Of a DNA stretch of 64,000 nucleotides, positions 2,951 through 60,274 are shown piece by piece. Position 1 is the stretch's first letter. Every line of letters begins with the position of its first letter. Source of the DNA: Bacteroidota bacterium (GTDB taxonomy: Bacteria > Bacteroidota > Ignavibacteria > Ignavibacteriales > Ignavibacteriaceae); assembly GCA_021777835.1 (NCBI GenBank), contig JAJYDC010000012.1, positions 3,295-67,294 of the forward strand, in the 5' to 3' direction. The translations under genes were made by a program, and so were the position numbers. The notes beneath the pieces are model-generated. The model was given only the letters and a program-made list of their open reading frames with translations. It made no database searches and was not told the origin of the DNA.

Positions 2951-3484
2951 ATGTTAAAGTCTCTACGATATCAAATACTCGTAAAACAGCATAAAAGCAG
3001 GATATACAGTTATTCCTATTTGATGTTGAAGAATCGAATGGATGCTGATGATATAACGCAGGAAGTTTTAATTCGTATTTGGAAGAATATAGACAACTTT
3101 AATATCAACAAGGCGAAATCGTGGATAATGAAAACCACTCACAATTTGTGTCTGGATTATTTACGACAGCGTCAATCAACGACTAAGAGATTTATTGAAA
3201 TAGATGAAACTTTTGAAAATAGTTTTAAGGAGGAAGATTTGTTAAGCGATCCCGAAATTTCTTTCCGGCGTGAAATTATTAAATCAAAGATAAAGGAAGC
3301 TATTGAACAACTGCCGGAATTATTAAAGAGTGTATTCGTTCTATACGAACTAGAAGGAATGAAATATAAAGAAATCAGTGATGTAATGAATATACCTATT
3401 AACAGTGTTAAAGTTTATTTACTTCGTGCAAGGAAGAAATTACAGTTAGTATTAAAGGAATTGGTAAATGAAGAAGCAATATAA
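2951..3484 (+). CDS. ECF-subfamily RNA polymerase sigma-70 factor
   Basis: A 177-aa ORF. It has a region 2-like segment (DADDITQEVLIRIWKNIDNF) and a region 4 HTH-like segment (LYELEGMKYKEISDVMNIPINSVKVYLLRARKKL). Confidence 0.85.
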   Translation: MLKSLRYQILVKQHKSRIYSYSYLMLKNRMDADDITQEVLIRIWKNIDNFNINKAKSWIMKTTHNLCLDYLRQRQSTTKRFIEIDETFENSFKEEDLLSDPEISFRREIIKSKIKEAIEQLPELLKSVFVLYELEGMKYKEISDVMNIPINSVKVYLLRARKKLQLVLKELVNEEAI

Positions 3485-4016
3485 TATCGATGAGGATTAT
3501 GTCGATAAAATTATTTCCGTAGCATATGGAGACGGAAGCCTGTTTGATAAAATTGGAGTTTATATAAAAGCTTATTCAAATTCCCGGGTTAGAAACTTAT
3601 TAAATGATTATAAGGCAACAGCGAAGGCAGTTAAGGTAGTTTCGAATGAATATTTATCGCCGGAACTTTTGAAGAATATTCAAGGTGTTACGAACAGCCG
3701 GGATAATTTATTTATGACCTTATCAGTAAATTTTGTTAATGCTCTAGTATCAAAGCCAATTTATTCAGCCACTGCAGTAATAGTTATTATAAGTGTTTCT
3801 GCTTTCTTATTATTAAGACAGCCGAAACCTGAGCCAACGTATTCAAATGAGCAAGTTGTAATGGCAGAAAAACAGGTAAAAGAATCGTTTGCGATTGTAG
3901 GTAAAATACTTGCAAGGACGCAAAACAAAATAACAAATGAAGTGATGACTAAAGAGGTTGCCCGACCAATAAATAAGAGCAACGAAATTATAGATAATTT
4001 ATTTAACGGAGGATAA
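3468..4016 (+). CDS. Putative anti-sigma factor (single-pass membrane protein)
   Basis: It overlaps the sigma gene by 17 nt, which suggests translational coupling. It has one central hydrophobic helix (IYSATAVIVIISVSAFLLL). The position is typical of an anti-sigma factor, but no diagnostic motif is present. Confidence 0.45.
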   Translation: MKKQYNIDEDYVDKIISVAYGDGSLFDKIGVYIKAYSNSRVRNLLNDYKATAKAVKVVSNEYLSPELLKNIQGVTNSRDNLFMTLSVNFVNALVSKPIYSATAVIVIISVSAFLLLRQPKPEPTYSNEQVVMAEKQVKESFAIVGKILARTQNKITNEVMTKEVARPINKSNEIIDNLFNGG

Positions 4017-4017
4017 A

Positions 4018-4584
4018 ATGAAAAACGTAATTAAAATGTTTGTGGTAATTTGTTTAATTGCCGCATCTAATTCATTTGCGCAAAAGGATGATAACTATTC
4101 AAAATACCCGGGATATTTCAATTTCGGTGATCTTTCACATTTCATTCAAGGTGATAATGTTACAGAAGTAAATATTGATAGTCACTTACTTGGTATGATG
4201 AGCGGATCAGCTGAAGATAGCAACGATGATTTCTCAAATATCGTTCACGGCTTAAAGCTTGTTAAAGTTTATTCATTTGATGTAAAAATGAAAGAACAAA
4301 AAGAATTACTTAGTAAAATGAATAAAATGGACGAAAACCTTACATCAAATAGTTGGAATAGAATAGTTAAAGTGAAAGAGCCCGGTGAATATACATTCGT
4401 ATATATTAAACCCGCGGTCAACAGTAAAGAAATATCAGGGCTGGTTGTAGCTACTTTTGAAAAAGACGGCAAAGCTACATTCGTAAATATTGTTGGGAAT
4501 ATTAATATGAGCGATATAGGGAAATTAAGTCATAAGTTTAACATTCCATCTCTTGACGGAAAAGATAATAAGAAGGTTAATTAA
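4018..4584 (+). CDS. DUF4252-like secreted protein
   Basis: It has a signal peptide (MKNVIKMFVVICLIAASNSFAQ). Its size and its position after an ECF/anti-sigma pair are typical of DUF4252 proteins. Confidence 0.55.
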   Translation: MKNVIKMFVVICLIAASNSFAQKDDNYSKYPGYFNFGDLSHFIQGDNVTEVNIDSHLLGMMSGSAEDSNDDFSNIVHGLKLVKVYSFDVKMKEQKELLSKMNKMDENLTSNSWNRIVKVKEPGEYTFVYIKPAVNSKEISGLVVATFEKDGKATFVNIVGNINMSDIGKLSHKFNIPSLDGKDNKKVN

Positions 4585-4585
4585 G

Positions 4586-5131
4586 ATGTATCGCAAGATG
4601 CTTTTGATATTACCGGTAATCTTAATGGGATTTGTTACTTCCGGATGTTATCAGGTGAATGGTGAATTTTTAGAATTAAAAAATGAAATATTATCTTCAA
4701 CCGGAAGTAGTTATAACAGGGATGTTGAATTTGCACTTGGGAAGGTTTCTATTTCAATAGTCAGGGCATTTGCAAGCCTTGATAACAATGATGACGAAAT
4801 AATAAAGAATATTTCAGGAATTCAAATAGGTGTTTATAAAAGGATCAGGCTTGATGAAGGCGATACTGATTTATTTCAAAGAATTAACTATAAGTTAGAG
4901 AATAATGGCTGGAAATATTTTGTAAGAGAAAAAGATCATGATGAAGTGAATATTATTTATTACAGAAGTAATGAAGAGGAAACACTTGGGGCTATGTTTA
5001 TAATATCATTGGATAAGGAAAAACTTACGCTTGTAAAAATACGCGGTGATTTAAGAAGAATTGTAATAGCAGCAATAAGGGAAAAGGGAGATCCGATAGA
5101 AGCATCCGGCATGCATAATAGTCATGACTAA
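4586..5131 (+). CDS. Lipoprotein, DUF4252-like
   Basis: The start is reassigned to the ATG at 4586 (MYRKMLLILPVILMGFVTSGC). This gives a lipobox-like TSGC motif and leaves only 1 nt between it and the stop of the upstream gene. The track start at 4553 would overlap that gene. Confidence 0.5.
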   Translation: MYRKMLLILPVILMGFVTSGCYQVNGEFLELKNEILSSTGSSYNRDVEFALGKVSISIVRAFASLDNNDDEIIKNISGIQIGVYKRIRLDEGDTDLFQRINYKLENNGWKYFVREKDHDEVNIIYYRSNEEETLGAMFIISLDKEKLTLVKIRGDLRRIVIAAIREKGDPIEASGMHNSHD

Positions 5132-5980: not shown

Positions 5981-7786
5981 TTAGGCTAATTGATGAGTAT
6001 ACTCATTAAGCATAATTTCAAGTTCATCTAAGTCTTCTTTTATTTTCTGCCTTGTCTTTTCCGTCTCTTCTATAATCTCAGGAATAAGGTTTTTATAATA
6101 CTTGATCCCATCCATTAGGTTTGTATGGAAAGTATTTATAAATTCCTCAGCATGCGTTGAAAGGGGAGTAAGATTCTCATCTATTTTTTTCTTCAAGAAA
6201 TTTATATATAGATTAAGTTCTTTAATAAACATATTTGGTCTATTATGATTCGTAATTAGATTTATTCTACCGTAGATATGATCAACCATTTCATGTAAGG
6301 TAGCAACCTTTGAATAATAGGCTAAATTAGGGCCGGGGCAGACAGAGACTGCTTTACTGATTTTAGGTGTATCAATATTATTTACTTTTAAGACAGAAGC
6401 TGCAAGACCGACACAAAGGCAAACCTTTTCCATTGTCTTATCAACACCCTTTTGCGATTCAATAGGGTCATTAGAGTTTAATTTAATTTCATTAGTTTTT
6501 TTATTTACATAAGAAATGGATGCAGTGCAGGCCGGTTTATCCGAAAACTCTTTATTAGAGACAAGGAATTTCTTAATACAGGGAGCTCCCGGTTTACCGT
6601 CCTTAATTCTATCAGCCTTTTCAACTTCTTTGCTGCTTGTTCTAAGATTGCTGAAAGGGACGCCAAGAGGTGAAACGTCGCTTAAGTAAATATCATCTTC
6701 TCCTGCTTCACAAAGTCTTTGTAAAGTTTCATCATCAACATTCATGACTTCAGGGACAAGAAGGAAAGGACTTCCCCAGCCAACTGATTTGACTCCATAT
6801 TTTCTAATAAGGAAATTATGCTCGCTTGCATTGCCGACTCCACCCTGGACGGTAATATCGAAATTGAGAATAGATTCATCAAATGAAATTTCTTTTTTAG
6901 ATAATGACTTCTTTAGCAATTCGCGCAGAGATTCGAGTAATTCATTTTTCTTGTTGGTAAACTCTTCAAGAATAGGGCCTAAGAGGTAGCCATCGGTAGC
7001 AAAGGCATGACCTCCGCAATTTAGTCCTGATTCAATCCTATATTCGGAGACCCACAGACCTTTATTAGCAAGAAACTTCCCTTGAATCAATGCAGAGCGA
7101 AAGTCACTTACTTTGATAATTATTTTCTTAGTGAAGCTGCAGTCGCGTTTTGGGAAGAAGTCCTTAAATGTGCTAAGGTAGCTATATAATCGTGTATTTA
7201 TACCAGCAGAAAAGACTACAGCGCTTTCAAGGTCGCTATTTGCAAATCCTCTAAGAGCTGCATGTGCGTCGTTATATTCTACTGGAAGCTGGGCGCCAAG
7301 AGTATCATAATTAGCTTTGTCTAGCTTAGTCATTATATTAACGTCGATAGCGCCGAGTCTAATATTTTCACGGAGCCACTTTTGCAGAGAAAGCAGTATG
7401 CTTGAATCTTTGGTCTCAAGCATCTCTTTATATTTAATTTTTAACGTTGAGATATCGGGGAGCATTTCAAAGTATTTGTTTATTTCGCTGCCATGCTCAA
7501 ACACGGATTGTTTTAGTATTTGGAATTGTTCTTTAGCAAGGCGATTCATCAAATTTAAATATGCGGTAATTCTTTTCGCTCTAGAGTCGTTTTCCTTATC
7601 GCCTATTTCCGAATAAATAATATTATTCTTTTCAGCATAATGCTTACGCAATTTTTCCATTAGTGTATCGTCAGCTAAAGACATAACAGATGATATACCA
7701 TACTTTGATACTTTTACCGGAGCATCAATAGAAAATCCGGTTCCCAAAACGGGTATGTGGAAATGATGAAGATCAGAAATACTCAT
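5981..7786 (-). CDS. Uncharacterized 601-aa protein with nitronate-monooxygenase/FabK-like TIM-barrel motifs
   Basis: A long uninterrupted ORF. The motifs ESGLNCGGHAF and TVQGGVGNASEHNFLIRKYGVKSVGWGSPFLLVPE resemble the GGH and GG...G.G.FL motifs of NPD/FabK-type flavoenzymes. This is by eye only. Confidence 0.45.
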   Translation of the reverse strand: MSISDLHHFHIPVLGTGFSIDAPVKVSKYGISSVMSLADDTLMEKLRKHYAEKNNIIYSEIGDKENDSRAKRITAYLNLMNRLAKEQFQILKQSVFEHGSEINKYFEMLPDISTLKIKYKEMLETKDSSILLSLQKWLRENIRLGAIDVNIMTKLDKANYDTLGAQLPVEYNDAHAALRGFANSDLESAVVFSAGINTRLYSYLSTFKDFFPKRDCSFTKKIIIKVSDFRSALIQGKFLANKGLWVSEYRIESGLNCGGHAFATDGYLLGPILEEFTNKKNELLESLRELLKKSLSKKEISFDESILNFDITVQGGVGNASEHNFLIRKYGVKSVGWGSPFLLVPEVMNVDDETLQRLCEAGEDDIYLSDVSPLGVPFSNLRTSSKEVEKADRIKDGKPGAPCIKKFLVSNKEFSDKPACTASISYVNKKTNEIKLNSNDPIESQKGVDKTMEKVCLCVGLAASVLKVNNIDTPKISKAVSVCPGPNLAYYSKVATLHEMVDHIYGRINLITNHNRPNMFIKELNLYINFLKKKIDENLTPLSTHAEEFINTFHTNLMDGIKYYKNLIPEIIEETEKTRQKIKEDLDELEIMLNEYTHQLA

Positions 7787-8089
7787 TATAGTATTTTCCT
7801 ATAATTAATAACTAATAAAGCGAGGTAAATTTTACTTATTGAGAAAATATAACACTCTAGAGAATATGGTAAAACATCCGGCTGGTTTAAAGGCCATCCT
7901 GTTTGGAATGGGAAAATAAAAGTATACTCTAACAGTCAAAATTTGTCAATTTGTTATAGTTAGCCAACTAATTATTTAATTCTTTGTAATCTTATAGATT
8001 ACTTAAACAAAAGTAAGTAAATAATTTGTAATATCTCATACCAATCAAATTATTATTTTTTTGGGGTTATGACATAATTTTGTAATAGA

Positions 8090-8186
8090 GGGGGTAGATG
8101 GGGGTAGGATGGGGAGCAGAACGTTTTCAAGATGTTTTCATGACGTTTTCATGACGTATTCATAACGTTTTCATAACGTTTTCAGG
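8090..8186. repeat. Helically phased tandem repeat array: 3 G-rich units plus 6 copies of ACGTTTTCATR
   Basis: The G-rich units are GGGGGTAGAT, GGGGGTAGGAT and GGGGAGCAGA, starting at 8090, 8100 and 8111. Six 11-bp units follow at 8121, 8132, 8143, 8154, 8165 and 8176: acgttttcaag, atgttttcatg, acgttttcatg, acgtattcata, acgttttcata, acgttttcagg. Confidence 0.9.
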
Positions 8187-8433
8187 ATTCTTATTTTATT
8201 TGCCATGCATTTGAGAAGGGCTTGAAAAAGCTGATTGTACCGACTTTCAAGTTACGTAATCAAGAAAAAGCGATCACGATTTGCACTATAAATAATAATA
8301 AATTATTAGGTATTAATCAAAACCGAAAATTGAATTATTATATTTCCCAATTATTATTTGTTAATAGCTAGCAACTCAGAAAAGCATCAAGGAGTTTTTA
8401 TCATAGATTCCTTAAATAAAATATTGAACACTT

Positions 8434-8504
8434 TGTTGATTTACATTTCAACTTTTAACTACTGATAGAAATATCTGTTGGTATATTCAACAGCGTGTTG
8501 ATTA
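8434..8504 (+). promoter_or_regulatory. Candidate enhancer (UAS) sites for the sigma-54 activator
   Basis: TGTTG motifs occur at 8434, 8476 and 8496, spaced 42 and 20 bp apart. Two inverted repeats are present: GTTGA-N8-TCAAC (8435-8452) and CTGTTG-N7-CAACAG (8475-8493). They sit about 110-180 bp upstream of the candidate -24/-12 element. Confidence 0.3.
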
Positions 8505-8610
8505 AAATCCTTACAGTATTTTCAAGCAATTCTTATAATAAATTCATCATCATTCTTCTAACCTTATCGTTCAAAATAAGTTAAGAAATAATAATTTTAA
8601 AAAAATTTAG

Positions 8611-8626
8611 TGGTATGCTAATTGAA
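8611..8626 (+). promoter_or_regulatory. Candidate sigma-54 (-24/-12) promoter
   Basis: TGGTATG-CTAA-TTGAA compared with the consensus TGGCACG-N4-TTGCW. GG and TTG are correctly spaced, but the conserved -12 C is an A. It lies 37 nt upstream of the RBS-supported start at 8663. A sigma-54 activator is encoded downstream. Confidence 0.35.
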
Positions 8627-8662
8627 CTAAAGAGTATAAAATTTAGTTATAAGGAGGATGTC

Positions 8663-8887
8663 ATGTTAACGTTTTTATTAGTACTTGTTTTAGTATTTGC
8701 CGCAGTTGATCTACTAGTATTACTAGTTATAGAGCCGCTGGCAAAAAAGGAGAAAATAAGAAAAGCTCGTCAGTCAGCATATCAAGAAAGAACTATTCCG
8801 ACGATGGGATTTGTAGGGGCAACAATGTACGACGGTGGAATTAAAAAGGAAAAAGAAAAAGATTCTAGCGAAAAGAAGTCTTCTTAA
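8663..8887 (+). CDS. 74-aa single-pass membrane protein with a C-terminal GATMYDGG motif
   Basis: The start is reassigned to the ATG at 8663, preceded by AAGGAGG (8652-8658). It has an N-terminal TM helix (LTFLLVLVLVFAAVDLLVLLVI), then a K/R-rich segment, then MGFVGATMYDGG. Confidence 0.6.
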   Translation: MLTFLLVLVLVFAAVDLLVLLVIEPLAKKEKIRKARQSAYQERTIPTMGFVGATMYDGGIKKEKEKDSSEKKSS

Positions 8888-8919
8888 TTATTCAAAAAAA
8901 TTAACAATAGGGAGATAAT

Positions 8920-9588
8920 ATGGTCGGAATGTTCATTGTAGTGACGTTTATAATTTTTTTGATAATAGACGTAGTAGTATTGAAAATGCAAAACAAACCC
9001 CATCCAGCTTTTGGGACAATTACAGCAGCAAATTTACTTGTATTCAACGATTACAATTTTGATATTCCTGATAATCTGATGTTTTCAAGGTCTCACACAT
9101 GGCTGCAGAGCAATGATAAAGGGCTTATTAAAATAGGAGTAGATGATTTTGTAGGTAAAGCAATAGGGGCTTATTCCTTTTCAAGTTTCGCAGGAGTTGA
9201 CAGGGATATTAAAAGAGGAGACACAATCTTTGAAATATCATCCGGCAACAGATCAATAAAAATTCCATCACCCATTGACTGTACATTAAAGTCAGTAAAC
9301 GAAGGGGTTTTTGCTAAAACAAACTTAAGTCCTTATCAGGATTGGGGTGTGCAAGTAAAGCCTAAGAATAATGAAGACAACCTTCGTCAATTAATTTATT
9401 CAAAAGACGCTGCCGCATGGATGAAGGGTGAAGTAAAGAGGCTAAAAGGTTTTATGAAAGGCACGTTTCAGCAAGCTGATATAGCCGGTTTAACGATGTA
9501 CGATGGAGGTACTGCAGTTAAAAGCGTTATTACAATTTTGACAGATAAAGAATTTCAGAATTTTCAAAAAGAATTTCTCACATTATAG
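8920..9588 (+). CDS. Membrane-anchored GcvH-fold protein lacking the lipoyl lysine, with a LTMYDGG motif
   Basis: It has an N-terminal TM helix. The segment HTWLQSNDKGLIKIGVDDFVGKAIG...GDTIFEISSGNRSIKIPSPIDCTLKSVN aligns by eye with E. coli GcvH [25 protein letters not shown]...[28 protein letters not shown]. An Asn sits at the lipoyl-Lys position. Confidence 0.6.
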   Translation: MVGMFIVVTFIIFLIIDVVVLKMQNKPHPAFGTITAANLLVFNDYNFDIPDNLMFSRSHTWLQSNDKGLIKIGVDDFVGKAIGAYSFSSFAGVDRDIKRGDTIFEISSGNRSIKIPSPIDCTLKSVNEGVFAKTNLSPYQDWGVQVKPKNNEDNLRQLIYSKDAAAWMKGEVKRLKGFMKGTFQQADIAGLTMYDGGTAVKSVITILTDKEFQNFQKEFLTL

Positions 9589-9599
9589 GTAGCAGGAAA

Positions 9600-10376
9600 A
9601 TGTCGAAAACTAAGGGACTATTGTTTGATGTAACACTTTGTATTGGCTGCGGAGCATGTTATGATGCTTGTAAGCAAAAAAATAAATTACCAAAGACTAA
9701 TCAGAATTTTCTAAGTGATCATCTTTCAGCAAACACATTTACAGTTTTAGAACAATACAATGAATATTATGCTCGTAAGCTTTGTATGCATTGTGATGAG
9801 CCATCATGCGTATCGGTTTGCCCTGTGGGAGCCTTTTCTAAAAGTAAAACAGGGGCTGTTCTTTATGATGGTGATAAGTGCATTGGGTGCAGGTATTGTA
9901 TGCAGGCATGTCCTCATAAAGTTCCAAGATATGAATGGGGAAAGACGCAGCCGAGAGTTAGAAAATGCAATATGTGTGATGATAGAATCAAAGAAGGAAA
10001 AATTCCAGCATGTGCTGAAGCATGTCCAACCGAGGCTACTTTATTCGGAGATATTGACGAATTAGTTGAAGTAGCAAAGAGGCGGATAAAAGAAAATAAG
10101 CGGAATTACTATCCTCATATTTATGGATTAGATGAGGCAGGCGGAAGTCACGTATTGATACTTTCGCCGGTTCCGTTTGAACAACTCGGCTACACACCGC
10201 ATTTGCCAAAAGAACCGATGCCTATGTTAACAATGAAAGCCATGGAAAAGATTCCTCCTGTTGTAGGAGTGGGAGGAATTTTCCTTGGCGGAATGTATTG
10301 GTTAACAAAAAGGAAGAACCAAATTGCAAAAGAGAAAAATGAAATAAAGAAGGAATTACAAGAACATGAAAACTAA
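9600..10376 (+). CDS. NrfC/HybA/DsrO-like 4x[4Fe-4S] ferredoxin subunit with a C-terminal TM anchor
   Basis: It has four Cys clusters: CIGCGACYDAC, CMHCDEPSCVSVCP, CIGCRYCMQACP and CNMCDD...CAEACP. A C-terminal helix (VVGVGGIFLGGMYWL) is followed by a K-rich tail. There is no twin-arginine signal. Confidence 0.85.
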   Translation: MSKTKGLLFDVTLCIGCGACYDACKQKNKLPKTNQNFLSDHLSANTFTVLEQYNEYYARKLCMHCDEPSCVSVCPVGAFSKSKTGAVLYDGDKCIGCRYCMQACPHKVPRYEWGKTQPRVRKCNMCDDRIKEGKIPACAEACPTEATLFGDIDELVEVAKRRIKENKRNYYPHIYGLDEAGGSHVLILSPVPFEQLGYTPHLPKEPMPMLTMKAMEKIPPVVGVGGIFLGGMYWLTKRKNQIAKEKNEIKKELQEHEN

Positions 10377-11538
10377 TTCATTGCTGAAATTTACGTTCTG
10401 GAAGATAGTAGCGGTTATAATTATAGTTGCTGGATTTATTTCAACATATTACCGATTTACAAAAGGATTAGGTGCCACAACAAATCTAAGTGATTTAGTT
10501 CCCTGGGGACTATGGATAGGCTTTGATTTTCTTGGAGTAGGATTAGCAGCAGCGGGATTTACGATAGCAGCGACGGTGCATATTTTCAATCTTCATAGGT
10601 TTGAGCCGATAGTTCGCCCGGCTATATTAACTGCATTTATCGGATATTCACTTGTTGTAGGGTTGTTAGTAGTTGATCTTGGTCGTCCTGAAAATTTTTG
10701 GCATCCTCTTGTAATGTGGAATATTCATTCAGTTATGTTCGAGATTACGTGGTGCATAATATGTTACACAACAGTGCTTATGCTTGAATTCGCGCCTGTA
10801 GTTTTAGAGAAGTTTAATCTGAAAGCACCGATTAAGCTTCTTAAGAAAATATCGATTCCTATAGTAATTGCCGGAGTTTTATTTTCTACACTTCATCAAT
10901 CATCATTCGGTTCACTCTATTTAATTGTTCCGGGAAGGCTTTACCCGCTGTGGTATTCATCATTATTGCCTGTTCACTTTTATATCTCCTGTATAGCGGC
11001 AGGAATATCAATGATAATATTTGAATCGTACATAAACGCAAGAGCGTTTAACACGGGTCTTCGATTAAATATATTATCTGAGCTTGCAGTTGTTGTCGTA
11101 ATTGTATTAGCAATTGAATTTATACTAAAGATTTCCGATTTACTTCTATCAGGCAAATTCAATTATTTAATTACCCTGAACATGGAATCATTTTTGTTCT
11201 ACCTTGAAATCATAATAGGAACATTTCTGCCGATAATATTATTAGGCAGCAAACGAAACCGGGAGAACAAGGGCATATTATTTATAGGGGCGATTTGTGT
11301 AATATGCGGATTCATTCTTAACAGGATGAATGTTTGCATGACAGGTATGGCGGCATCTTCAGGAGTAAGTTATTTTCCATCATTTGATGAAATCAGTATA
11401 ACTTTTATGCTTGTTGTGTTAGCCATGATTGCTTTTAACCTTGTAGTACAGAACTTCCAGGTATTCACATACACAGAGGAACATGTTATTCAAGAAAATG
11501 GAGTTGTTGAAACAAAGAAAATTATTACAAGTGAATAA
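10366..11538 (+). CDS. NrfD/HybB/DsrP-family integral membrane (quinone-interacting) subunit
   Basis: A 390-aa protein with about 10 hydrophobic helices. It overlaps the FeS gene by 11 nt. This is the canonical NrfC-NrfD gene pairing. Confidence 0.8.
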   Translation: MKTNSLLKFTFWKIVAVIIIVAGFISTYYRFTKGLGATTNLSDLVPWGLWIGFDFLGVGLAAAGFTIAATVHIFNLHRFEPIVRPAILTAFIGYSLVVGLLVVDLGRPENFWHPLVMWNIHSVMFEITWCIICYTTVLMLEFAPVVLEKFNLKAPIKLLKKISIPIVIAGVLFSTLHQSSFGSLYLIVPGRLYPLWYSSLLPVHFYISCIAAGISMIIFESYINARAFNTGLRLNILSELAVVVVIVLAIEFILKISDLLLSGKFNYLITLNMESFLFYLEIIIGTFLPIILLGSKRNRENKGILFIGAICVICGFILNRMNVCMTGMAASSGVSYFPSFDEISITFMLVVLAMIAFNLVVQNFQVFTYTEEHVIQENGVVETKKIITSE

Positions 11539-11539
11539 A

Positions 11540-12262
11540 ATGAACAATAAAGACGAGTATCAAGACAATCGCTTTTTTAATCTGAAATGTATATGGATGG
11601 CTTCCAGGACGGTAGAATATAAATTATGCGATAGAGAATTCAATTGTGACGACTGCCAGTTCGATCGGGAGGTAAGGAATAGCGATTTCAATAATGAAAA
11701 GACAGATATCAATCAGAGGAGTATTCTCGATTCATTAAGCGATAAGCTTCAAAATATTAAATATGATGAAAAGGTTATTTATCTTAAAAATAGTCTGATG
11801 ATAAAGCAGATATTCGGCAACACATTCTATTTAGGGCTTAATCCAATTTTGCAGCCATTCCTTGAGGGTGTAAAATTCATAAAAGAATGTGAACTAGGGA
11901 AATATATTTTAAAAGGAAATCCGGTACTTCAATTCAGAGGTGAATGGGGTGAGATAACCCTAAGCTCGCCAATTAATTTTTTAATGTACGATATAATGAA
12001 TAACCGAAGCTGTGACATGCTTAAGAATAAATGGTTTGCAATAGTGGGAATAATTCAACCAGAAGTATCAATAGGTATAATCACGAAGAAAGATTGGGAT
12101 GAAACATTATACAAGTCATTTGAATTTGTGGAGGCAATTAAAACGGCACCCCCAGCAGTTGGTGCTACGATGCAAGACGGCGGATGCCAGATAAGATATT
12201 TATACGAACTGATAGGAGTATCAAAATTTAGAGAAGTATTGAACACAATCTTAGGCATTTGA
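11540..12262 (+). CDS. Soluble Cys-rich GcvH-fold protein with a GATMQDGG motif
   Basis: The start is reassigned to the ATG at 11540, 1 nt after the nrfD-like stop. The N-terminus carries Cx12Cx5Cx2C (CIWMASRTVEYKLCDREFNCDDC). A central GcvH-like segment (FYLGLNPILQPFLEGVKFI...GNPVLQFRGEWGEITLSSPINF) has no lysine at the lipoylation position. The C-terminus has PAVGATMQDGG. Confidence 0.55.
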   Translation: MNNKDEYQDNRFFNLKCIWMASRTVEYKLCDREFNCDDCQFDREVRNSDFNNEKTDINQRSILDSLSDKLQNIKYDEKVIYLKNSLMIKQIFGNTFYLGLNPILQPFLEGVKFIKECELGKYILKGNPVLQFRGEWGEITLSSPINFLMYDIMNNRSCDMLKNKWFAIVGIIQPEVSIGIITKKDWDETLYKSFEFVEAIKTAPPAVGATMQDGGCQIRYLYELIGVSKFREVLNTILGI

Positions 12263-12292
12263 AATTATATATAATATTGTTAGTTCGCAATT

Positions 12293-12318
12293 ATCCCGTA
12301 TTTAATACGGGATTTTTT
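12293..12318 (+). terminator. Rho-independent terminator of the NrfCD-like operon
   Basis: ATCCCGTAT (12293-12301) pairs with ATACGGGAT (12305-12313) around a 3-nt loop. It runs into a T6 tract ending at 12318. Confidence 0.7.
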
Positions 12319-12328
12319 ATGGAATTAG

Positions 12329-12357
12329 TTGACACTAGCAAAAGTAATTCCTAAATT
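12329..12357 (+). promoter_or_regulatory. Candidate sigma-70-type promoter of the kinase/regulator operon
   Basis: TTGACA (12329-12334), a 17-nt spacer, then TAAATT (12352-12357). It lies 25 nt upstream of the GTG start at 12382. Confidence 0.35.
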
Positions 12358-12381
12358 TAGAGCAACTGGGAAGGGTTTTAA

Positions 12382-13968
12382 GTGAAAACCAAAATATTAA
12401 ATAGATTAAGCGTCCGCCTTATAATATCAATCTCCTTTATATTAGTCACCATTTTTTCAGTATACACCTATATAATTGTAAAGAATCTCGACAAATATTT
12501 AACCGAAGCTCGATTTGAGAGTGCATACAACATTAGCGATTTGATTAAAAAGTCAACACGTTATAGTATGTTACTAAATAGGCGAGAAGATGTGCACCAA
12601 ATAATCAAGACGTTGGGGACGGAAATTGGTGTAAAGAACATTAGAATATATAACAAACAGGGATTGATTATTTTTTCAACGGATTCCTCTGAAATCCTAA
12701 AGAAAGTAAACGTAACTGCAGAAGCCTGCATAGTTTGTCATAACAGCACAATTCCTATACAAAGTATAACTAATCAAAATAAGATCCGAATATATAAGAA
12801 TACAGAAAACAAGCGAGTGCTTGGATTAATAAATCCAATTCAAAACGAGCCTGATTGTTCAAACGGAGATTGTCATGCACACTCGCCAAAAGTAAAGATT
12901 CTCGGAGTACTAGATGTAGTAGTAACACTTGATGAACTTGACAAAATAATATCCCAGAACAGGCAGAGTACAATACTTAGTGCAGTGTTAATCACAATTG
13001 CTATCTCATTCTTCTGCGGGCTATTCATCATTTTGCTTGTCAACAAGCCGATGAAGCAATTGACAAAAGGTATAGATGAGGTAGGCAAAGGGAATTTGAA
13101 TTATAAAATAGGGTTAAAGTCAAAGAACGAATTTGGTCAGATGGCAAAGAGATTCAATGAGATGTCTGAAAAATTAAATGAGGCATACAAAGAAATTAAG
13201 AATTGGTCAGAGACTTTAAATGATAAGGTAAATGAAAAAACAGAGGAGTTAAAGAATATATATAACCAAGTAAATCAGATTGAAAAATTAGCTTCACTCG
13301 GCAAACTTTCAGCGACAGTGGCGCACGAATTAAACAATCCACTTGAAGGGATATTAACATACAGCAAGCTTATCATGAAGAAATTAAATGCGATTCAAAA
13401 GGAATCGGAATTTTCAAAGATGATAGAATATCTTGCACTTATTTCAGATGAATCTTCACGCTGCGGAAAAATAGTGAAAGACCTTCTTTTATTTTCTCAT
13501 GAAGAAAAAGATGTTTTTGCGTTAGAGAGTCTTCCGGCAATAATAGATAAAAGCATAAGGCTTATTAATCATCATCTTGAAATTCAAAAAATAACTTTAG
13601 AGAAAGATTACCTTAAAGAAGGAGTAATGATAAATTGTAATGCGCAGAAAATTCAGCAAGCTCTGATGTCATTGTTTATCAATTCAATTGAAGCTATGCC
13701 GCATGAAGGGAAAATAATAGTAAAGCTAAGTAAAGAAAAGGATCAGGCAGTTATAAGAGTGATAGATGAAGGCACGGGTATTTCGGAGAAAGACTTACCT
13801 CACATATTTGAACCATTCTATTCAACTAAAGAAGCATCAAAGGGCACCGGGCTAGGTCTTGCTGTGGCATATGGGATAATAGCCAATCACAATGGTCATA
13901 TAACAGTTGAAAGTACTTCTCTAAAGGGGACAACATTTAAAGTTAATTTACCGTTAAATGAACAATAA
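12382..13968 (+). CDS. Sensor histidine kinase with heme-c motifs in the periplasmic domain
   Basis: Two TM helices (about residues 9-33 and 196-220) flank a roughly 160-aa loop. The loop contains CIVCH (C116-H120) and CSNGDCH (C159-H165). A HAMP-like linker, an H-box (ATVAHELNNPL) and ATPase motifs (DEGTGI, GTGLGL) follow. Confidence 0.85.
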   Translation: MKTKILNRLSVRLIISISFILVTIFSVYTYIIVKNLDKYLTEARFESAYNISDLIKKSTRYSMLLNRREDVHQIIKTLGTEIGVKNIRIYNKQGLIIFSTDSSEILKKVNVTAEACIVCHNSTIPIQSITNQNKIRIYKNTENKRVLGLINPIQNEPDCSNGDCHAHSPKVKILGVLDVVVTLDELDKIISQNRQSTILSAVLITIAISFFCGLFIILLVNKPMKQLTKGIDEVGKGNLNYKIGLKSKNEFGQMAKRFNEMSEKLNEAYKEIKNWSETLNDKVNEKTEELKNIYNQVNQIEKLASLGKLSATVAHELNNPLEGILTYSKLIMKKLNAIQKESEFSKMIEYLALISDESSRCGKIVKDLLLFSHEEKDVFALESLPAIIDKSIRLINHHLEIQKITLEKDYLKEGVMINCNAQKIQQALMSLFINSIEAMPHEGKIIVKLSKEKDQAVIRVIDEGTGISEKDLPHIFEPFYSTKEASKGTGLGLAVAYGIIANHNGHITVESTSLKGTTFKVNLPLNEQ

Positions 13969-13982
13969 TTAAAGAGACAGAC

Positions 13983-15338
13983 ATGAATACTAAAGAAAAA
14001 ATTTTAATAGTCGACGACGAAAAGATAGTCAGAGAATCTCTTTTCCATTGGTTTGAAGAAGAAGGTTACGAAGTAGACACTGCGGAAGACGGGGAGAGCG
14101 CATTAAGAAAATTTGAGAAGATCAAATTTGATCTTCTTTTAGTAGATATGAAAATGCCGGGTATGAGCGGACTGGAATTATTGGCTCGCATAAAAGCAAT
14201 TGACACTGAATCAGTAGTAATTCTGATAACGGCATTTGCATCAGTGCCAACGGCTATTTCTGCGCTTAAGAACGGTGCGTATGATTATGTAACAAAGCCT
14301 GTTGACCCGGATGAGCTAGCACATCTTGTACAAAAAGCACTTGAACAGAAAGCGTTGAAGCTTGAAAACAAGCAGCTGAAGGAAAACATCGAAGAAATAA
14401 TTAAGCCGGATAATTTGATAGGTGAGAGCTATCAGATGAAAAAGATTTATGAACTAATACATACAGTAGCTCCGGGAGACACAACTGTAATGATACGTGG
14501 AGAGAGCGGAACAGGAAAGGAATTAGTAGCAAAGGCAATACATATTAATAGTAAAAGAAAATATTTTCCAATAATTCCAGTTAATTGCGGTGCTTTAGCA
14601 GAATCACTTTTAGAAAGCGAGCTATTCGGGCATGAAAAGGGTGCATTTACCGGAGCTCAATTTAAGAGAAAAGGCAAATTTGAAATGGCTGACGGGGGAA
14701 CGATATTTCTAGACGAAATAGGATCTGTTTCGTTGAAAATGCAGATTGAACTATTGCGAGTCATTGAGTCGAAACAATTCAACCGAGTAGGAGGGAACGA
14801 GCTAATTAAAAGTGACTTCCGAATTATTGTCGCTACAAATGAGCCGTTAGAAGAACTTGTAAAGGCTGGCAAATTTAGAGAAGATCTTTATTATAGGTTA
14901 AATGTGTTTTCAATAGTTATTCCGCCATTAAGAGAGAGACGGGATGACATTCCGCTGTTAGCAAATTTCTTTCTTAAGAAATTCTCGGTTGTAATGAATA
15001 AGCCTTTGAAGAAGATATCAAAGGAAGCGCTAGACTTTTTGGTTCATTATGATTGGCCGGGTAATGTAAGGGAATTGGAAAACGCGATGGAACGAGCGAT
15101 GGTAATAGGGAAGATGGATACAATAGTAGTTGATGACCTGCCGTTTCATGTTTCCTCGAATAATTTTGTAAGTGAAGACGGCTACAAGAGTTTATCGGCA
15201 ATGGAGAAGAAGTATATAAATAAAATTCTGAATGAAAATAATTGGAATATATCAAGAAGTGCTTCTATACTTGAAATAGACAGGGTGACGCTGTATAACA
15301 AAATTAATAAATACGGGTTACGTAAAGTATCTTATTGA
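13983..15338 (+). CDS. Sigma-54-dependent response regulator (NtrC family: REC, AAA+, Fis-type HTH)
   Basis: It has a receiver domain (ILIVDDE...DLLLVDMKMPGMSG), a Walker A motif (GESGTGKE), the GAFTGA signature (HEKGAFTGAQ) and a C-terminal HTH (NISRSASILEIDRVTLYNKINKYGL). Confidence 0.9.
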   Translation: MNTKEKILIVDDEKIVRESLFHWFEEEGYEVDTAEDGESALRKFEKIKFDLLLVDMKMPGMSGLELLARIKAIDTESVVILITAFASVPTAISALKNGAYDYVTKPVDPDELAHLVQKALEQKALKLENKQLKENIEEIIKPDNLIGESYQMKKIYELIHTVAPGDTTVMIRGESGTGKELVAKAIHINSKRKYFPIIPVNCGALAESLLESELFGHEKGAFTGAQFKRKGKFEMADGGTIFLDEIGSVSLKMQIELLRVIESKQFNRVGGNELIKSDFRIIVATNEPLEELVKAGKFREDLYYRLNVFSIVIPPLRERRDDIPLLANFFLKKFSVVMNKPLKKISKEALDFLVHYDWPGNVRELENAMERAMVIGKMDTIVVDDLPFHVSSNNFVSEDGYKSLSAMEKKYINKILNENNWNISRSASILEIDRVTLYNKINKYGLRKVSY

Positions 15339-15877
15339 TGGATATTTATATTGCACCATTAAAATTCTCGAATGCATTGTTACTCGGAGACATAATTTCT
15401 GAATTATCGAATAGATTTGTTTCCAAAATCAGTGTGATTGAAATGCAGTTAAATGCTGGGAAATATTTGTCGAAAGAGAGGGGGCAATATTATTCTACCG
15501 GACTAATAGCCGACGCTATGAATATTACAGGAAACTATAGCGGTAAGATTATTATACTGACAGAAATCGATTTATATGTTCCAGTACTTACATTTATTTT
15601 CGGAGAAGCGCAGCTAAACGGTAAGCATTCAATAGTATCGGCGTGCAGGCTTCATGAAGAATTTTATTCAGGTAAATCCGATGACAAGATATTATTTGAA
15701 AGATTAATGAAAGAGATATTACACGAACTTGGGCATACTTATGGACTGCGTCATTGTGTAAACTGGGATTGTGTAATGCACACCTCACCGGGAATCGAAG
15801 AAGTAGACATCAAAGGGAGTGACTACTGCAAAAGATGTGCTTCAATAGTAGACGGATACAAATCGCCTTATTTTTAA
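15338..15877 (+). CDS. Archaemetzincin-like (peptidase M54) zinc metallopeptidase
   Basis: HELGHTYGLRHCVNWDCVMH...(16 aa)...CKRC matches the archaemetzincin signature HEXXHXXGX3CX4CXMX17CXXC except that the spacer is one residue shorter. The ATG at 15338 overlaps the regulator's stop codon (TGATG). Confidence 0.75.
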   Translation: MDIYIAPLKFSNALLLGDIISELSNRFVSKISVIEMQLNAGKYLSKERGQYYSTGLIADAMNITGNYSGKIIILTEIDLYVPVLTFIFGEAQLNGKHSIVSACRLHEEFYSGKSDDKILFERLMKEILHELGHTYGLRHCVNWDCVMHTSPGIEEVDIKGSDYCKRCASIVDGYKSPYF

Positions 15878-15888
15878 TTTCTACCGGA

Positions 15889-17070
15889 TTAAATACCCAG
15901 TTCTAATTTTACAACTTTAAACATTTTAATAGCATAATCTAAGTCTTCTTTAGAATGGGCTGCCGAAATTTGGACTCTTATTCTTGCGGTTCCTTTAGGG
16001 ACAACAGGAAAGAAAAATCCTATAACATAGACATTTTTTTCCAGCATACGGGAAGCGACTTTCTGAGCAAGCAAGGCATCTTCGAGCATAATAGGTACAA
16101 TAGGGTGAACACCCGGTTTGACCTTAAGTCCTGCTTTTGCGATACCTTCTCTAAAATACTTTGTATTAGCTTCAAGTTTATCGCGCAAGTCGGTAGATGA
16201 TTTCAAAATTTCAAGAACCTTAAGAGAAGCAGAGACGATACTTGGTGCAAGGGTATTAGAGAACAGATAAGGTCTAGATCGCTGCCGAAGAAGATCAATA
16301 ATTTCTTTTCTTCCGCTAGTATACCCGCCGCTTGCGCCCCCTAAAGCTTTTCCAAGAGTACCGGTAATTATATCAACGCGACCCATTACATTTCTATATT
16401 CATGAGTACCTTTTCCGGTTTTGCCCATAAATCCCACAGCATGTGAATCATCAACCATAACCAGAGCGCCATATTTATCAGCAAGACTGCAGATGCTTTC
16501 CAAGTTGGCGATACTTCCATCCATAGAGAAGACGCCATCGGTAGCAATTAATTTTATCTTATAATGCGAAGCTTCCTTCAGCTTATTTTCAAGGTCATTC
16601 ATATCGTCATTTTTATATCTAAAACGATTAGCTTTGCAGAGTCGTATACCATCAATTATACTTGCATGGTTCAGCTCATCACTAATTATAGCGTCGTCTT
16701 CCGAAAGTATAGTTTCGAACAAACCACCGTTAGCATCGAAGCAAGAAGAATATAAGATAGTATCTTCAGTTCCGAGAAAATCTGAAAGATTAGACTCTAA
16801 CTCCTTATGAATTTCTTGAGTTCCGCAAATAAAACGGACAGAAGAAAGTCCATATCCCCATTTATCAAAACTTGACCTTGCGGCTTGAATTACCTCTGGG
16901 TTATCAGCTAAGCCAAGATAATTATTAGCGCACATGTTCAGGACTTTTTGTCCTTTAACCTGGATATAAGAATTTTGGGGACTGCCTAATACTCTTTCAT
17001 TTTTATAAAGACCTTCACTTTCTATTTGCTGAAGGATCGCGCTATAATGTTTTTTAATTTTATCGTCCAT
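15889..17070 (-). CDS. kbl: Glycine C-acetyltransferase (2-amino-3-ketobutyrate CoA ligase)
   Basis: A 393-aa class-II aminotransferase-like protein with the motifs [19 protein letters not shown] and [14 protein letters not shown]. It is adjacent to tdh. Confidence 0.9.
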
Positions 17071-17097
17071 TGAAATCCTCTTTATTGATTTGGATAA

Positions 17098-18138
17098 TTA
17101 ACTTTTAATCCAGTCTAGAACTATTTTCCCTGAATTTCCCGATTTCATTAGTTCAAAACCTTCGATGTATGATTCGTAGGGGAAGCGATGAGTAATTATA
17201 GGAGAGATATCCAATCCGCTTTGAATCATGGTAGTCATCTTATACCAGGTTTCGAACATTTCTCTGCCATATATTCCTTTAAGAGTAAGTCCATTAAAAA
17301 CGACCGTATTCCAATCAATAGCTGCGCTTTCGGGTAAAATGCCCAAGAGAGCAATTTTGCCGCCGTGGCACATAGCATTGATTAGGCTTTTTAATGCAGC
17401 GGGATTACCTGACATTTCCAATCCAACATCAAAGCCTTCCTTCATTTCAAGCTCTGCCATTACGTCGTTAAGATTTTCTTTTGAGACATTAACGGCGCGA
17501 GTTACTCCCATCTTTTTAGCAAGATCAAGGCGGTAAGGGTTTACATCCGTAATAACCACATACCGTGCGCCTGCATGCTTAACAATTGCGGCAGCCATTA
17601 TTCCTATAGGGCCAGCTCCTGTAATTAAAACATCTTCGCCAAGGACATCAAAAGAAAGGGCAGTGTGAGTAGCATTACCAAACGGATCGAAGGTAGATAA
17701 AATATCTTTTGAAATATTAGGATCACATTGCCAAACATTAGAAACCGGGATGCAAAGATATTCGGCAAAAGCGCCAGGTCGATTAACACCGACGCCCATA
17801 GCATTTTTGCAAAGATGTCTTCTGCCGGCTCTACAGTTTCTGCAATGGCCGCAGACGATATGACCTTCACCGCTGACCAATTCACCTATTTTCAAATCAT
17901 GCACATTACTGCCGATAGATTCGACAGTGCCGACATACTCATGTCCTGTAACCATAGGAACCGGAATAGTTTTTTGAGCCCATTCGTCCCAGTTATAAAT
18001 ATGAATATCAGTACCGCAAATTGAAGTTTTGTGAATTTTAATTAGAACATCGTTAATGCCAACCTCGGGGACAGCGACTTCATCAAGCCACAGTCCAGGT
18101 TTGGAATATTTCTTTACCAGCGCTTTCATTGTTTTCAT
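17098..18138 (-). CDS. tdh: L-threonine 3-dehydrogenase
   Basis: Zn-ADH family motifs are present: [30 protein letters not shown] and GAGPIG. It is in an operon with kbl. Confidence 0.9.
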
Positions 18139-49526: not shown

Positions 49527-49528
49527 TT

Positions 49529-51814: not shown

Positions 51815-51843
51815 AATTGAAAATTCTGAATTAGGAGCAAATA

Positions 51844-57542: not shown

Positions 57543-57559
57543 ACGGAGTTAATAACTTA

Positions 57560-59218: not shown

Positions 59219-60274
59219 ATGCTTTCAAAAATACTATCCAGTTCAACTATTGGTATTGATGCCTACCTTGTTGAAGTTGAAACAAATGTAGAGAAACAAT
59301 TACCTGTAATAATCATTGTCGGATTACCGGATAATGTTGTTAAGGAAAGTAAAGAACGTGTAGTTGCCGCTATTAAGAATAGTGGCTTTGCATTTCCAAT
59401 AAAGAAAATCACAATTAATATGGCGCCTGCCGATATTAAGAAAGAGGGGAGTTCGTTTGACCTGCCGATTGCAATAGGTATTTTAACAGCAACAAACATT
59501 GTTCAAATAGAATATACAAGCGATACAGTATTCCTTGGTGAGCTTTCATTGGACGGTGCACTTCGCCCGATAAAGGGTGCGCTTCCGATTACAGTAGAAG
59601 CAAAAAAAAGAGGGATAAAAAGAATTATATTGCCAATGGATTCAGCTAAGGAGGCATCGATAGTTGATGGTATTGATGTTTACGGGATGGAAAATCTTCT
59701 TGAAGTAGTTAAGTTTATAAACAATGAAATAGACAAAGAGAAAATTTTCACTGATAGGAATGAGCTCTTTTCTCAGATCAATTTATATCATTTAGATTTT
59801 TCCGATGTTAAGGGGCAGGAGAATGTAAAGCGAGCATTGGAAGTTGCTGCAGCGGGTGCACATAATATTCTGATGATTGGTCCACCGGGGTCCGGTAAAA
59901 CAATGCTTGCAAAAAGGATTCCTTCAATACTTCCTCCGATGTCATTTGACGAAGCTTTAGAGACAACAAAGATACATTCGATTGCAGGTATAATTCCGAA
60001 GGAACAGTCGCTGATAACGGAGCGTCCTTTTAGAAGTCCGCATCATACAGTATCGGATGCTGCACTAGTTGGAGGCGGATCATTCCCGCGTCCAGGGGAG
60101 GTTTCTTATGCACATCACGGAGTATTGTTCTTAGATGAGTTGCCGGAATTTAAAAAGAATGTTTTAGAAGTTTTACGTCAGCCGCTTGAGGACTCAAGGG
60201 TAACAGTAAGCCGCTCGAAGTTATCGTTAGAATTCCCGGCAAATTTTATGCTTGCTGCGGCAATGAATCCGTGA
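59219..60274 (+). pseudogene. comM: comM/yifB (Mg-chelatase-like AAA+ competence helicase), truncated at residue 351 by an insertion
   Basis: The N-terminal Lon-like domain ([13 protein letters not shown]...[14 protein letters not shown]) and the AAA+ core ([20 protein letters not shown]) are intact. The ORF stops right after FMLAAAMNP, where family members continue CPCG... About 150 C-terminal residues are missing. Confidence 0.8.

Follow-up and report, generated by a model that had tools for sequence, protein, structure and literature searches.

Modules of the NrfD family have a central part in anaerobic respiration, and orphan pairs of NrfC- and NrfD-type proteins (NrfCD), which lack a catalytic subunit, are common in genomes and poorly understood. 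We analyzed one such pair in a 64-kb stretch of DNA from a Bacteroidota bacterium of the family Ignavibacteriaceae (assembly GCA_021777835.1, contig JAJYDC010000012.1, positions 3,295–67,294), hereafter the window. Between window positions 8434 and 15877 lie two consecutive operons. The first encodes a single-pass membrane peptide (orf1), a protein with the fold of the glycine-cleavage H protein (GcvH-A, orf2), an NrfC-type iron-sulfur (Fe-S) protein (orf3), an NrfD-family membrane subunit (orf4) and a second GcvH-like protein (GcvH-B, orf5). The second encodes a sensor histidine kinase, a sigma-54 activator and an archaemetzincin (peptidase M54). This gene set is conserved across several phyla, and it is not described in the searchable literature, which was queried for archaemetzincin with NrfD or sigma-54, for GcvH-like proteins with NrfD, and for the names HmcB, HmcC and HmcD. 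One large clade of orphan NrfCD pairs comes as a fixed package with a kinase bearing two haem motifs, an activator, two GcvH folds that lack the lipoyl lysine, and an archaemetzincin.

Genes and control DNA of the locus

The five open reading frames (ORFs) of the first operon are co-directional, with gaps of 32, 11, -11 and 1 nt, and end at an intrinsic terminator; the regulator operon follows directly (Table 1). An earlier reading of this DNA from its letters alone, hereafter the sequence-only reading, had described the spacings, the terminator and the kinase, sigma-54 activator and metzincin genes in the same way, and the ORFs and domain calls agreed with it. It had also called an NrfC/NrfD pair with four [4Fe-4S] clusters and about ten helices, which Pfam and helix prediction supported. 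The orf3 protein matched Fer4_11 (E 2e-24) and has 16 Cys in four CxxCxxCxxxC-type groups. The orf4 protein matched Pfam NrfD (PF03916; 83.9 bits vs a cut-off of 25.8, E 2e-23), and by hydropathy and the positive-inside rule it has ten helices with both termini inside the cell, a count of 14 vs 6 Lys/Arg favoring cytoplasmic even-numbered loops. Against curated families, orf3 scored 266 bits with HmcB (cut-off 420) and 208 with HybA (cut-off 263), while orf4 scored 288 bits with HmcC (cut-off 550) and 276 with HybB (cut-off 450). Because all four scores fell under the cut-offs and the defining subunits are absent, the system is not a member of the Hmc or Hyb complexes; together with its absence from the searchable literature, this agrees with the earlier claim that the set fits no characterized NrfD-family complex.

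The sequence-only reading was right about the Fe-S protein itself, and missed that orf3 carries no twin-arginine translocation (Tat) signal: the protein starts MSKTKGLLFD, and a stop 17 codons upstream leaves no room for a longer N-terminus. Of 81 loci, 74 likewise encode an Fe-S protein without this signal; the other seven have paralogous or Deltaproteobacteria-labelled forms with RRxFLK. Its C-terminal end is a Gly-rich hydrophobic segment followed by a basic tail, and its closest solved structure is FdnH (1kqf_B, E 4e-35); a PDB sequence search with NrfD gave no match. The orf4 protein has no CxxCH motif and keeps long periplasmic loops. In one relative (L083), NrfD has an 11th helix followed by a tri-haem c7-like domain that must be periplasmic, which fixes the orientation of NrfD. 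Taken together, the topology of NrfD with its long periplasmic loops and, in orf3, the basic tail that follows the hydrophobic segment predict a periplasmic location of the Fe-S domain.

In the kinase, two helices enclose a PAS-like periplasmic domain that bears CxxCH and Cx4CH-x-H sites; HAMP, HisKA and HATPase domains follow. Residues C116, C119, H120, C159, C164, H165 and H167 were invariant across phyla, and both haem motifs were present in every kinase found beside an NrfCD. A profile of the sensor domain matched the PAS-like haem-c sensor of GSU0582 (3b42) weakly (E 0.004), with the window Cx4CH aligning on the CxxCH of 3b42. The earlier proposal of a haem-sensor kinase was thereby strengthened, and we regard the kinase as a putative haem-containing sensor, with haem attachment predicted from the motifs. 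The activator matched Sigma54_activat (E 1.5e-69), Response_reg (E 1e-32) and HTH_8, and GAFTGA is present in its translation; the best family scores of the two regulators were with AtoSC and ZraSR. The archaemetzincin passed the cut-off of NCBIfam archmetzin (NF033823; 154 bits vs 145) and matched Pfam (E 8e-27). Its translation contains HELGHTYGLRH and a Cys4 site (HELGHTYGLRHC...C...CxxC). A search with this protein returned only close Ignavibacteriota relatives.

The predicted sigma-54 promoter upstream of orf1 was invariant in an alignment with close relatives, and its exact match is unique in the window. About 50 of 71 loci had the pattern TGG[CT]A[CT]-N5-[TC]TG at the corresponding site. 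The enhancer palindrome also has a single match in the window, and in 39 of 62 loci with such a promoter, TG[TA]TG-N7-CAACA likewise stood at a distance of exactly 135 bp, compared with 7 of 62 control stretches. A promoter with a palindrome at a fixed offset is what would be expected at the target of an enhancer-binding protein; the adjacent activator is the obvious candidate, and the palindrome is likely its binding site; the imperfect palindrome further upstream is a possible second site. The dedicated sigma-54 control suggested by the sequence-only reading is backed by the conserved promoter and the fixed palindrome. An Rfam search of positions 7700–16000 gave no match. The 875-bp intergenic region upstream of the first operon also contains two tandem repeats, TAGATGGGGG in 2.9 copies (8086–8114) and ACGTTTTCATG in 5.8 copies (8121–8184; 88% matches).

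Table 1. Coordinates of the genes and control elements of the two operons in the window
Feature	Position	Strand	Details
Imperfect palindrome TGTTGA-N8-TCAACT	8434..8453	+	Sequence reading; block partly conserved in closest relatives; weaker evidence than for the site at 8476
Enhancer palindrome TGTTG-N7-CAACA	8476..8492	+	135 bp upstream of the -24 element
Third TGTTGA half-site	8496..8501		Sequence reading
Predicted sigma-54 (-24/-12) promoter TGGTATGCTAATTGAA	8611..8626	+	TGGTATG-N4-TTGA
orf1	8663..8887	+	74 aa; start backed by AAGGAG ribosome-binding site and ATG conserved in relatives
orf2 (GcvH-A)	8920..9588	+	Pfam GCV_H
orf3, 4x[4Fe-4S] NrfC-type protein (HmcB/HybA/FdnH-like)	9600..10376	+	Fer4_11
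orf4, haem-free NrfD-family quinone-interacting membrane subunit (HmcC/HybB-like)	10366..11538	+	Pfam NrfD
orf5 (GcvH-B)	11540..12262	+	Start backed by homologue N-termini; fold from AlphaFold/Foldseek
Intrinsic terminator, end of first operon	12293..12322	+	9-bp stem with 4 G-C pairs, 3-nt loop, then TTTTTAT
Sigma-70-like promoter candidate of regulator operon, TTGACA-17-TAAATT	12329..12357	+	Consensus scan 10/12; pattern match only
Sensor histidine kinase	12382..13968	+	Pfam domains
NtrC-type sigma-54 enhancer-binding response regulator	13983..15338	+	Pfam domains, GAFTGA
Archaemetzincin (peptidase M54)	15335..15877	+	4-nt overlap with end of activator gene

Conservation of the gene set, a shared motif and cytochrome neighbours

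Searches gave 377 matches in GTDB species genomes, of which the best 80 loci were examined, and 233 in JGI metagenomes, with 42 long loci; in a set of 1.84 billion representatives, the orf5 family comprised 631 clusters (E<1e-10). The set was syntenic in more than 110 loci of Ignavibacteriota, of records labelled Deltaproteobacteria and of further metagenome lineages, and the five-gene set of the first operon recurred in both the Ignavibacteriota and the Deltaproteobacteria-labelled records. The order (orf1)-orf2-orf3-orf4-orf5-kinase-activator-M54 was found in about 75 of the best 80 genome loci, all Ignavibacteriota-type, and in 33 of the 42 long metagenome loci. By this comparison of sequences, the gene arrangement is not due to chance. 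Conservation within the set is uneven. Across Ignavibacteriota loci the activator was 73–91% identical and the GcvH-like proteins 28–69%, the regulators and the redox pair being far better conserved. M54 was syntenic in nearly all loci, with HExxHxxGxxH intact in every homologue checked. The metzincin operon named in the sequence-only reading is real, with the correction that the metzincin is an integral and near-invariant member of the system.

In addition to the window order, two further architectures were found. In Type I, which includes the Deltaproteobacteria-labelled records, the first operon runs small peptide-FeS-NrfD (with or without a C-terminal tag, see below)-A-B and is convergent with M54-activator-kinase; its Fe-S protein has a Tat signal. 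Type II runs B-A-FeS-NrfD::tri-haem-kinase-activator-M54, and its Fe-S protein has none. Some loci depart further. L087 and L161 have no NrfCD and instead encode a major facilitator superfamily (MFS) transporter with a tagged tail, a haem-free dCache kinase and a perfect sigma-54 promoter (TGGCATGGATGTTGCT). In L087 (8395–10765), this promoter drives the transporter, whose last 19 residues are ...HLGFTMADGGEKIEKKK, and then GcvH-B, with M54, activator and kinase convergent. L155 has only B-A-kinase-activator-M54. Satellite triplets of small peptide, A and B also occur among unrelated genes, with no redox genes nearby. In seven cases (L002, L086, L103, L107, P0103, P0205 and P0206), GcvH-B is fused to HisKA-HATPase. 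Because L087 and L155 keep the set without NrfCD, the invariant core is GcvH-B, kinase, activator and M54; the NrfC/NrfD pair, which the sequence-only reading took as the core, is confirmed as a pair and is not the invariant core.

The three accessory proteins of the first operon are predicted to face the cytoplasm. The orf1 product is a single-pass membrane peptide with a Lys/Glu-rich tail, predicted to have its N-terminus outside and its C-terminus inside; homologues were detected in about 40 loci, and Pfam and NCBIfam scans gave no match. Its one helix is followed by a strongly basic stretch, which predicts a cytoplasmic C-terminus, and the same holds for the body of orf2. GcvH-A consists of an N-terminal membrane helix, a GcvH-fold domain, a helix, the motif described below and a C-terminal helix. 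It matched Pfam GCV_H (E 5e-12) and scored 50.9 bits with NCBIfam GcvH, which does not reach the cut-off of 117; the lipoyl Lys of the pea H protein (hairpin ESVKA) aligns to an Asn. GcvH-B is soluble and consists of a Cys4 element (11588–11665), a GcvH fold, a helix, the motif and C-terminal helices. Pfam and NCBIfam scans (including GcvH) gave no match for it, and its fold comes from an AlphaFold model (model confidence, pLDDT, 73), the core of which matched H-protein structures in Foldseek (1htp, E 1e-5, TM 0.75). C17, C30, C36, C39 and D213-G214-G215 are invariant in the GcvH-B family, the consensus of the Cys4 element is C-I-W-M-x8-Y-K-L-C-x5-C-x2-C, and neither orf5 nor its family has a conserved Lys at the lipoyl position.

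Several GcvH-B relatives (among P0137, P0146, P0150, P0156 and P0182) have two to four copies of C-x-W-M...Y-K-L-C-x5-C-x2-C, and some add an N-terminal MKCPFLE...YCKA segment; no Pfam family matched either element. In the membrane helices of orf1 (AAVDLLV; 8663–8740) and orf2 (LIIDVVV; 8920–8985), an aspartate stands shortly before a basic cluster, and the same aspartate is found in the GcvH-A homologues of L001 and L083. This residue could be a contact to NrfD or to its proton path.

All three accessory proteins carry the motif G-x-T-M-x-D-G-G (more fully, G-x-T-M-x-D-G-G-x-x-[IV]), predicted to face the cytoplasm: GATMYDGG in orf1 (8816–8839), GLTMYDGG in orf2 (9487–9510) and GATMQDGG in orf5 (12161–12184). 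The sequence-only reading had seen it in the two GcvH-fold partners, and Pfam for orf2, Foldseek for orf5 and a motif scan bore out both the fold and the motif; the 74-aa orf1 product has to be added as a third carrier. The scan, a regular-expression search of 7,502 six-frame ORFs in the window and 82 related loci, found the motif in 70 of 75 GcvH-A, 71 of 86 GcvH-B and 27 of 40 small-peptide homologues, and in none of the other ORFs. By the same kind of comparison as above, the sharing of the motif among these three families is not due to chance.

In other lineages, the motif lies at the extreme C-terminus of NrfD (L084, ending ...APQLGLTMADGGKIIDQKKK, and others), and in L087 at the C-terminus of the MFS transporter (...EPHLGFTMADGGEKIEKKK). 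The consensus of these tails is L-x-P-x-L-G-[LF]-T-M-A-D-G-G-x-x-I-[DE]-K-x-K-K, as in the tail peptide LGLTMADGGDSIDKEKK; they stop 7–17 residues past DGG and are Lys/Glu-rich and contain Ile. In both GcvH-A and GcvH-B, a hydrophobic residue stands three positions past DGG, at the start of the C-terminal helix, so that the tails imitate part of the C-terminal extension of these two proteins. Two other interpretations of the motif were dropped. Its resemblance to the activator segment FEMADGGT, located before Walker B, extends only to DGG and was judged a coincidence; a ubiquitin-like or Pup-like conjugation through the "GG" was abandoned, as no ligase-type gene was present in any locus examined.

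Finally, we considered the partners of the redox pair. No molybdoenzyme, hydrogenase or HdrD-like gene was present in the 64-kb window or in seven Pfam-annotated contexts, and the absence of a catalytic subunit noted in the sequence-only reading thus extends to these relatives. The relatives differ from the window in this respect: a scan for multihaem ORFs showed that they often have c-type cytochromes, either fused or as neighbours. "Orphan" is consequently a correct description of the window and not of the family as a whole. About 39 Ignavibacteriota loci have a divergent operon for a 13-haem c3-family cytochrome together with a further Fe-S protein (Tat-bearing), another NrfD and another kinase whose sensor shows the same CxxCH + Cx4CH pattern (for example, L007 201–5454, minus strand); this operon is missing from the window and its closest relatives. 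A tetra-haem cytochrome lies between orf5 and the kinase in eight loci, a tri-haem domain is fused to NrfD (Type II) in about ten, and CbcA-like (7-haem) and CbcB-like (cytochrome b) genes are adjacent in eight Type I loci. The recurrent periplasmic neighbour is thus a c-type cytochrome, in keeping with a quinone:cytochrome oxidoreductase like Hmc, Nhc or Qrc. In L090 (1679–4201, minus strand), the genes beside the cluster encode a cytochrome with 7 haems, a cytochrome b of the Ni_hydr_CYTB family and a c7-type cytochrome with 9 haems, reminiscent of CbcA and CbcB of Geobacter; the same was seen in L091, L093, L098, L129 and L138. We found no convincing sigma-54 promoter for the divergent cytochrome operons of L007 and L090.

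A proposed redox-induced module and its alternatives

Hmc, Nhc and Qrc perform electron transfer between menaquinone and periplasmic c-type cytochromes. The Desulfovibrio Hmc and Nhc complexes (HmcB-HmcC-HmcD and NhcB-C-D) resemble the window system in three respects: the best family scores of its Fe-S protein and NrfD are with HmcB and HmcC, a small single-pass partner stands beside the pair, and the relatives have multihaem cytochromes of the c3/c7 type, either fused or next door. They differ in that neither the window operon nor its flanks encode HmcA (16-haem), HmcE (cytochrome b) or HmcF (HdrD-like); the relatives have other cytochromes, and neither HmcE nor HmcF was seen among them. Moreover, the window system lacks the Tat signal, and the GcvH-like proteins, the motif, the sigma-54 control and the archaemetzincin are foreign to Hmc and Nhc. 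A weak precomputed match of PF28260 ("DVU_0533") to the N-terminal helix of a GcvH-A homologue (L084) was not reproduced on rescanning; DVU0533 we take to be HmcD, and an HmcD-like reading of this helix is a lead only. E. coli hydrogenase-2 (HybOABC) is similar in that HybA and HybB are the second-best family matches and HybB is of the same 10-helix NrfD type; it differs in that the window has no hydrogenase genes and that HybA, unlike the window Fe-S protein, has its own Tat signal.

An orphan NrfCD is already known from Melioribacter roseus, where Mros1571-1572 was read as a quinol:electron-acceptor reductase feeding periplasmic cytochromes (PMC3534657). We liken the window pair to it by description; accessory or regulatory genes are not discussed there. 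For the control of such a module, Geobacter sulfurreducens offers a parallel, which we compared by published descriptions. BccR, a REC-AAA+-HTH protein, is needed to induce the sigma-54-dependent cbcBA operon when the redox potential drops, and in mutants Fe(III) reduction ceases at about -0.21 V; the cbcBA operon starts with two hypothetical proteins, one of which is predicted to lie in the inner membrane (10.1101/2021.04.15.440034). GSU0599, a neighbour of bccR, reportedly has two haem motifs in a periplasmic sensor domain of the PAS-like type (PMC3831638). Both systems have a REC-AAA+-HTH sigma-54 activator over an inner-membrane quinone oxidoreductase, and CbcA/CbcB-like genes flank the window-type system in the eight loci given above. 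The Geobacter module is a b/c-type cytochrome pair, in contrast to the NrfC/NrfD pair of the window, and neither an archaemetzincin nor a GcvH-like protein is mentioned for it. The CbcA/CbcB-like neighbours (L090 and others) suggest that the hypothetical proteins GSU0597 and GSU3489 of the operon under BccR control could be related to GcvH-B and to the small peptide. By analogy, we read the window system as one that may work like a quinone module of the Hmc/Nhc/Qrc type under BccR-like control.

Putting these lines together, we infer a redox-induced quinone:cytochrome module with GcvH-like adaptors and a protease feedback loop, a picture that we think about as likely to be right as wrong. In this picture, the kinase would read periplasmic or quinone-pool redox potential via its haems and phosphorylate the activator, which would bind the palindrome and switch on the first operon. 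The Fe-S/NrfD pair would then move electrons between menaquinone and periplasmic c-type cytochromes, possibly including the haems of the kinase itself. Because they have no lipoyl Lys and NrfD lacks a cofactor that could carry electrons inward, the GcvH-like proteins are read as putative adaptors at the cytoplasmic face and not as carriers. In the fusions, GcvH-B is the input domain of a kinase, so that it probably reports the state of a tagged membrane partner to the kinase or the activator. The identical tag on partner tails and inside GcvH-A and GcvH-B suggests competition for one binding site: GcvH-B may bind the motif-tagged tails of the membrane module, or compete with them. The loop would be reset by the archaemetzincin, trimming or removing the motif-bearing tails. 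Encoded with the regulators and always catalytically intact, M54 is the natural candidate to cut them. Archaemetzincins have no known physiological substrate; the one predicted for the family is basic/hydrophobic (PMC3427221), a description that Ile/Lys-rich tails would fit. The adaptor step and the protease step, each taken alone, are less likely than the overall picture, and each has a less than even chance.

Several points weigh against this picture. We cannot explain how an Fe-S protein without its own export signal would reach the periplasm. We found no cytochrome gene near the window or its nearest relatives (L003–L005). The promoter has a perfect -24 element, and its -12 element is TTGA versus the consensus TTGC. 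The confidence of the orf5 model is low at the motif (pLDDT about 56–61), and an AlphaFold model of a GcvH-B::kinase fusion (pLDDT 54) was uninformative and set aside. Lastly, we infer haem binding, quinone reactivity, protein contacts and proteolysis alike.

The alternative that survives best, which we nevertheless consider unlikely, is a Psp/Zra-like response to membrane or envelope stress that monitors motif-tagged membrane proteins, with NrfCD as one interchangeable client and redox as incidental. In Psp (PspA/PspBC/PspF), Zra (ZraP/ZraSR), DctA-DcuS and BceAB-BceS, an operon product or a transporter feeds back on the cognate sensor or activator, and in the first two these are accessory proteins acting on a sigma-54 activator. 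The invariant core without NrfCD in L087 and L155, the portability of the motif (single-pass peptide, NrfD tail and MFS tail), the satellite triplets far from redox genes and the AtoSC and ZraSR scores of the regulators would all be expected under such a response. What it leaves unaccounted for is that both haem motifs are kept in every kinase beside NrfCD, that NrfCD is present in most loci with cytochromes as recurrent neighbours, and that Pfam and NCBIfam scans revealed no homology to Psp or Zra effectors. We treat Psp, Zra and the co-sensing transporters as an analogy of logic only, with no sequence relationship, the coupling in the window being proposed to run via the motif, the GcvH fold and the protease.

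Next comes, as a rather unlikely explanation, a conventional respiratory enzyme with the gene for its catalytic subunit at another place in the genome; a Tat-signal partner such as a molybdoenzyme would take the signal-less Fe-S protein across the membrane. The GcvH-like proteins and the protease would then be assembly or maturation factors, for example for C-terminal clipping as by hydrogenase maturation proteases. The signal-less relatives FdnH and DmsB cross the membrane by riding on their catalytic partner, FdnH on FdnG; FdnH being the closest solved relative of orf3 and most loci lacking the signal, this keeps an unlinked carrier in play. The long periplasmic loops of NrfD are consistent with such a partner, and the tails of fixed length after DGG in many loci (7–10 residues) would suit a processing site. 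However, catalytic genes are missing from the window and the seven annotated contexts, and the Deltaproteobacteria-labelled forms have their own Tat signal yet no catalytic partner in the annotated contexts. Furthermore, the motif, GcvH-B and M54 persist where an MFS transporter replaces NrfCD, GcvH-B is fused to kinases, and the gene for M54 stands among those of the regulators, apart from the structural genes. 

A third alternative, that the GcvH-like proteins are true lipoyl or acyl carriers tied to glycine metabolism and re-oxidized by the Fe-S/NrfD pair, draws on the GCV_H domain of orf2, the GcvH fold of orf5 and a downstream gene pair taken as threonine-to-glycine enzymes (aminotransferase-fold and zinc alcohol dehydrogenase-type), and was rejected as very improbable, as the lipoyl Lys is replaced in orf2 and absent across the orf5 family, the NCBIfam GcvH cut-off was missed more than two-fold, NrfD lacks a cofactor for electron transfer across the membrane, and the flanking genes vary among loci. 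The window proteins share the fold of the H protein and of GcvH-L, and differ from them in the missing lipoyl Lys, the added membrane anchor (orf2) or Cys4 element (orf5), the C-terminal helix-motif-helix and the kinase fusions.

Returning to the redox-induced module, a bolder form of the adaptor and protease steps can be put forward tentatively, as possible and on the doubtful side. The Cys4-GcvH protein, archaemetzincin, activator and kinase may form a modular cassette that reads whichever membrane protein carries the C-terminal tag, be it an NrfD module, an MFS transporter or a single-pass peptide, with the GcvH fold as the reader and the archaemetzincin as the tag-specific protease. If true, this would give archaemetzincins their first physiological substrate and role, and the H-protein fold its first use in signalling. 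The tagged tails are candidate substrates for a protease family with human members, AMZ1 and AMZ2, and the H-protein fold, found fused to histidine kinases, may have a non-carrier signalling role. The system would also offer a possible route for matching an inner-membrane quinone:cytochrome module to redox potential, which bears on extracellular electron transfer (compare CbcBA and BccR).

Flanking genes and other features of the window

The gene pair directly downstream of the archaemetzincin (15889–18138, minus strand) encodes class I/II aminotransferase-fold and zinc alcohol dehydrogenase-type proteins, which we take to be kbl and tdh, converting threonine to glycine. Since this neighbourhood is not conserved in other loci, its link to the GcvH-like genes was judged coincidental. 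Directly upstream of the regulatory region of the first operon, a 601-aa ORF with 8 Cys (5981–7786, minus strand) had no Pfam match and a negligible NCBIfam match. Further upstream (2951–5131), an ECF-type sigma factor is followed by an ORF without assignment and two DUF4252 proteins; this resembles a small cluster for envelope signalling, unconnected with the redox system.

A mannosidase cluster is located at 48078–53241 (GH125 with a Tat signal, GH92 and GH47). Its Tat-signal protein (48078–49526) was considered and rejected, as it is a GH125 mannosidase and unrelated. The window also contains NuoG- and NuoH-like complex I genes (55857–58591) and a large serine recombinase (60246–61760, minus strand).

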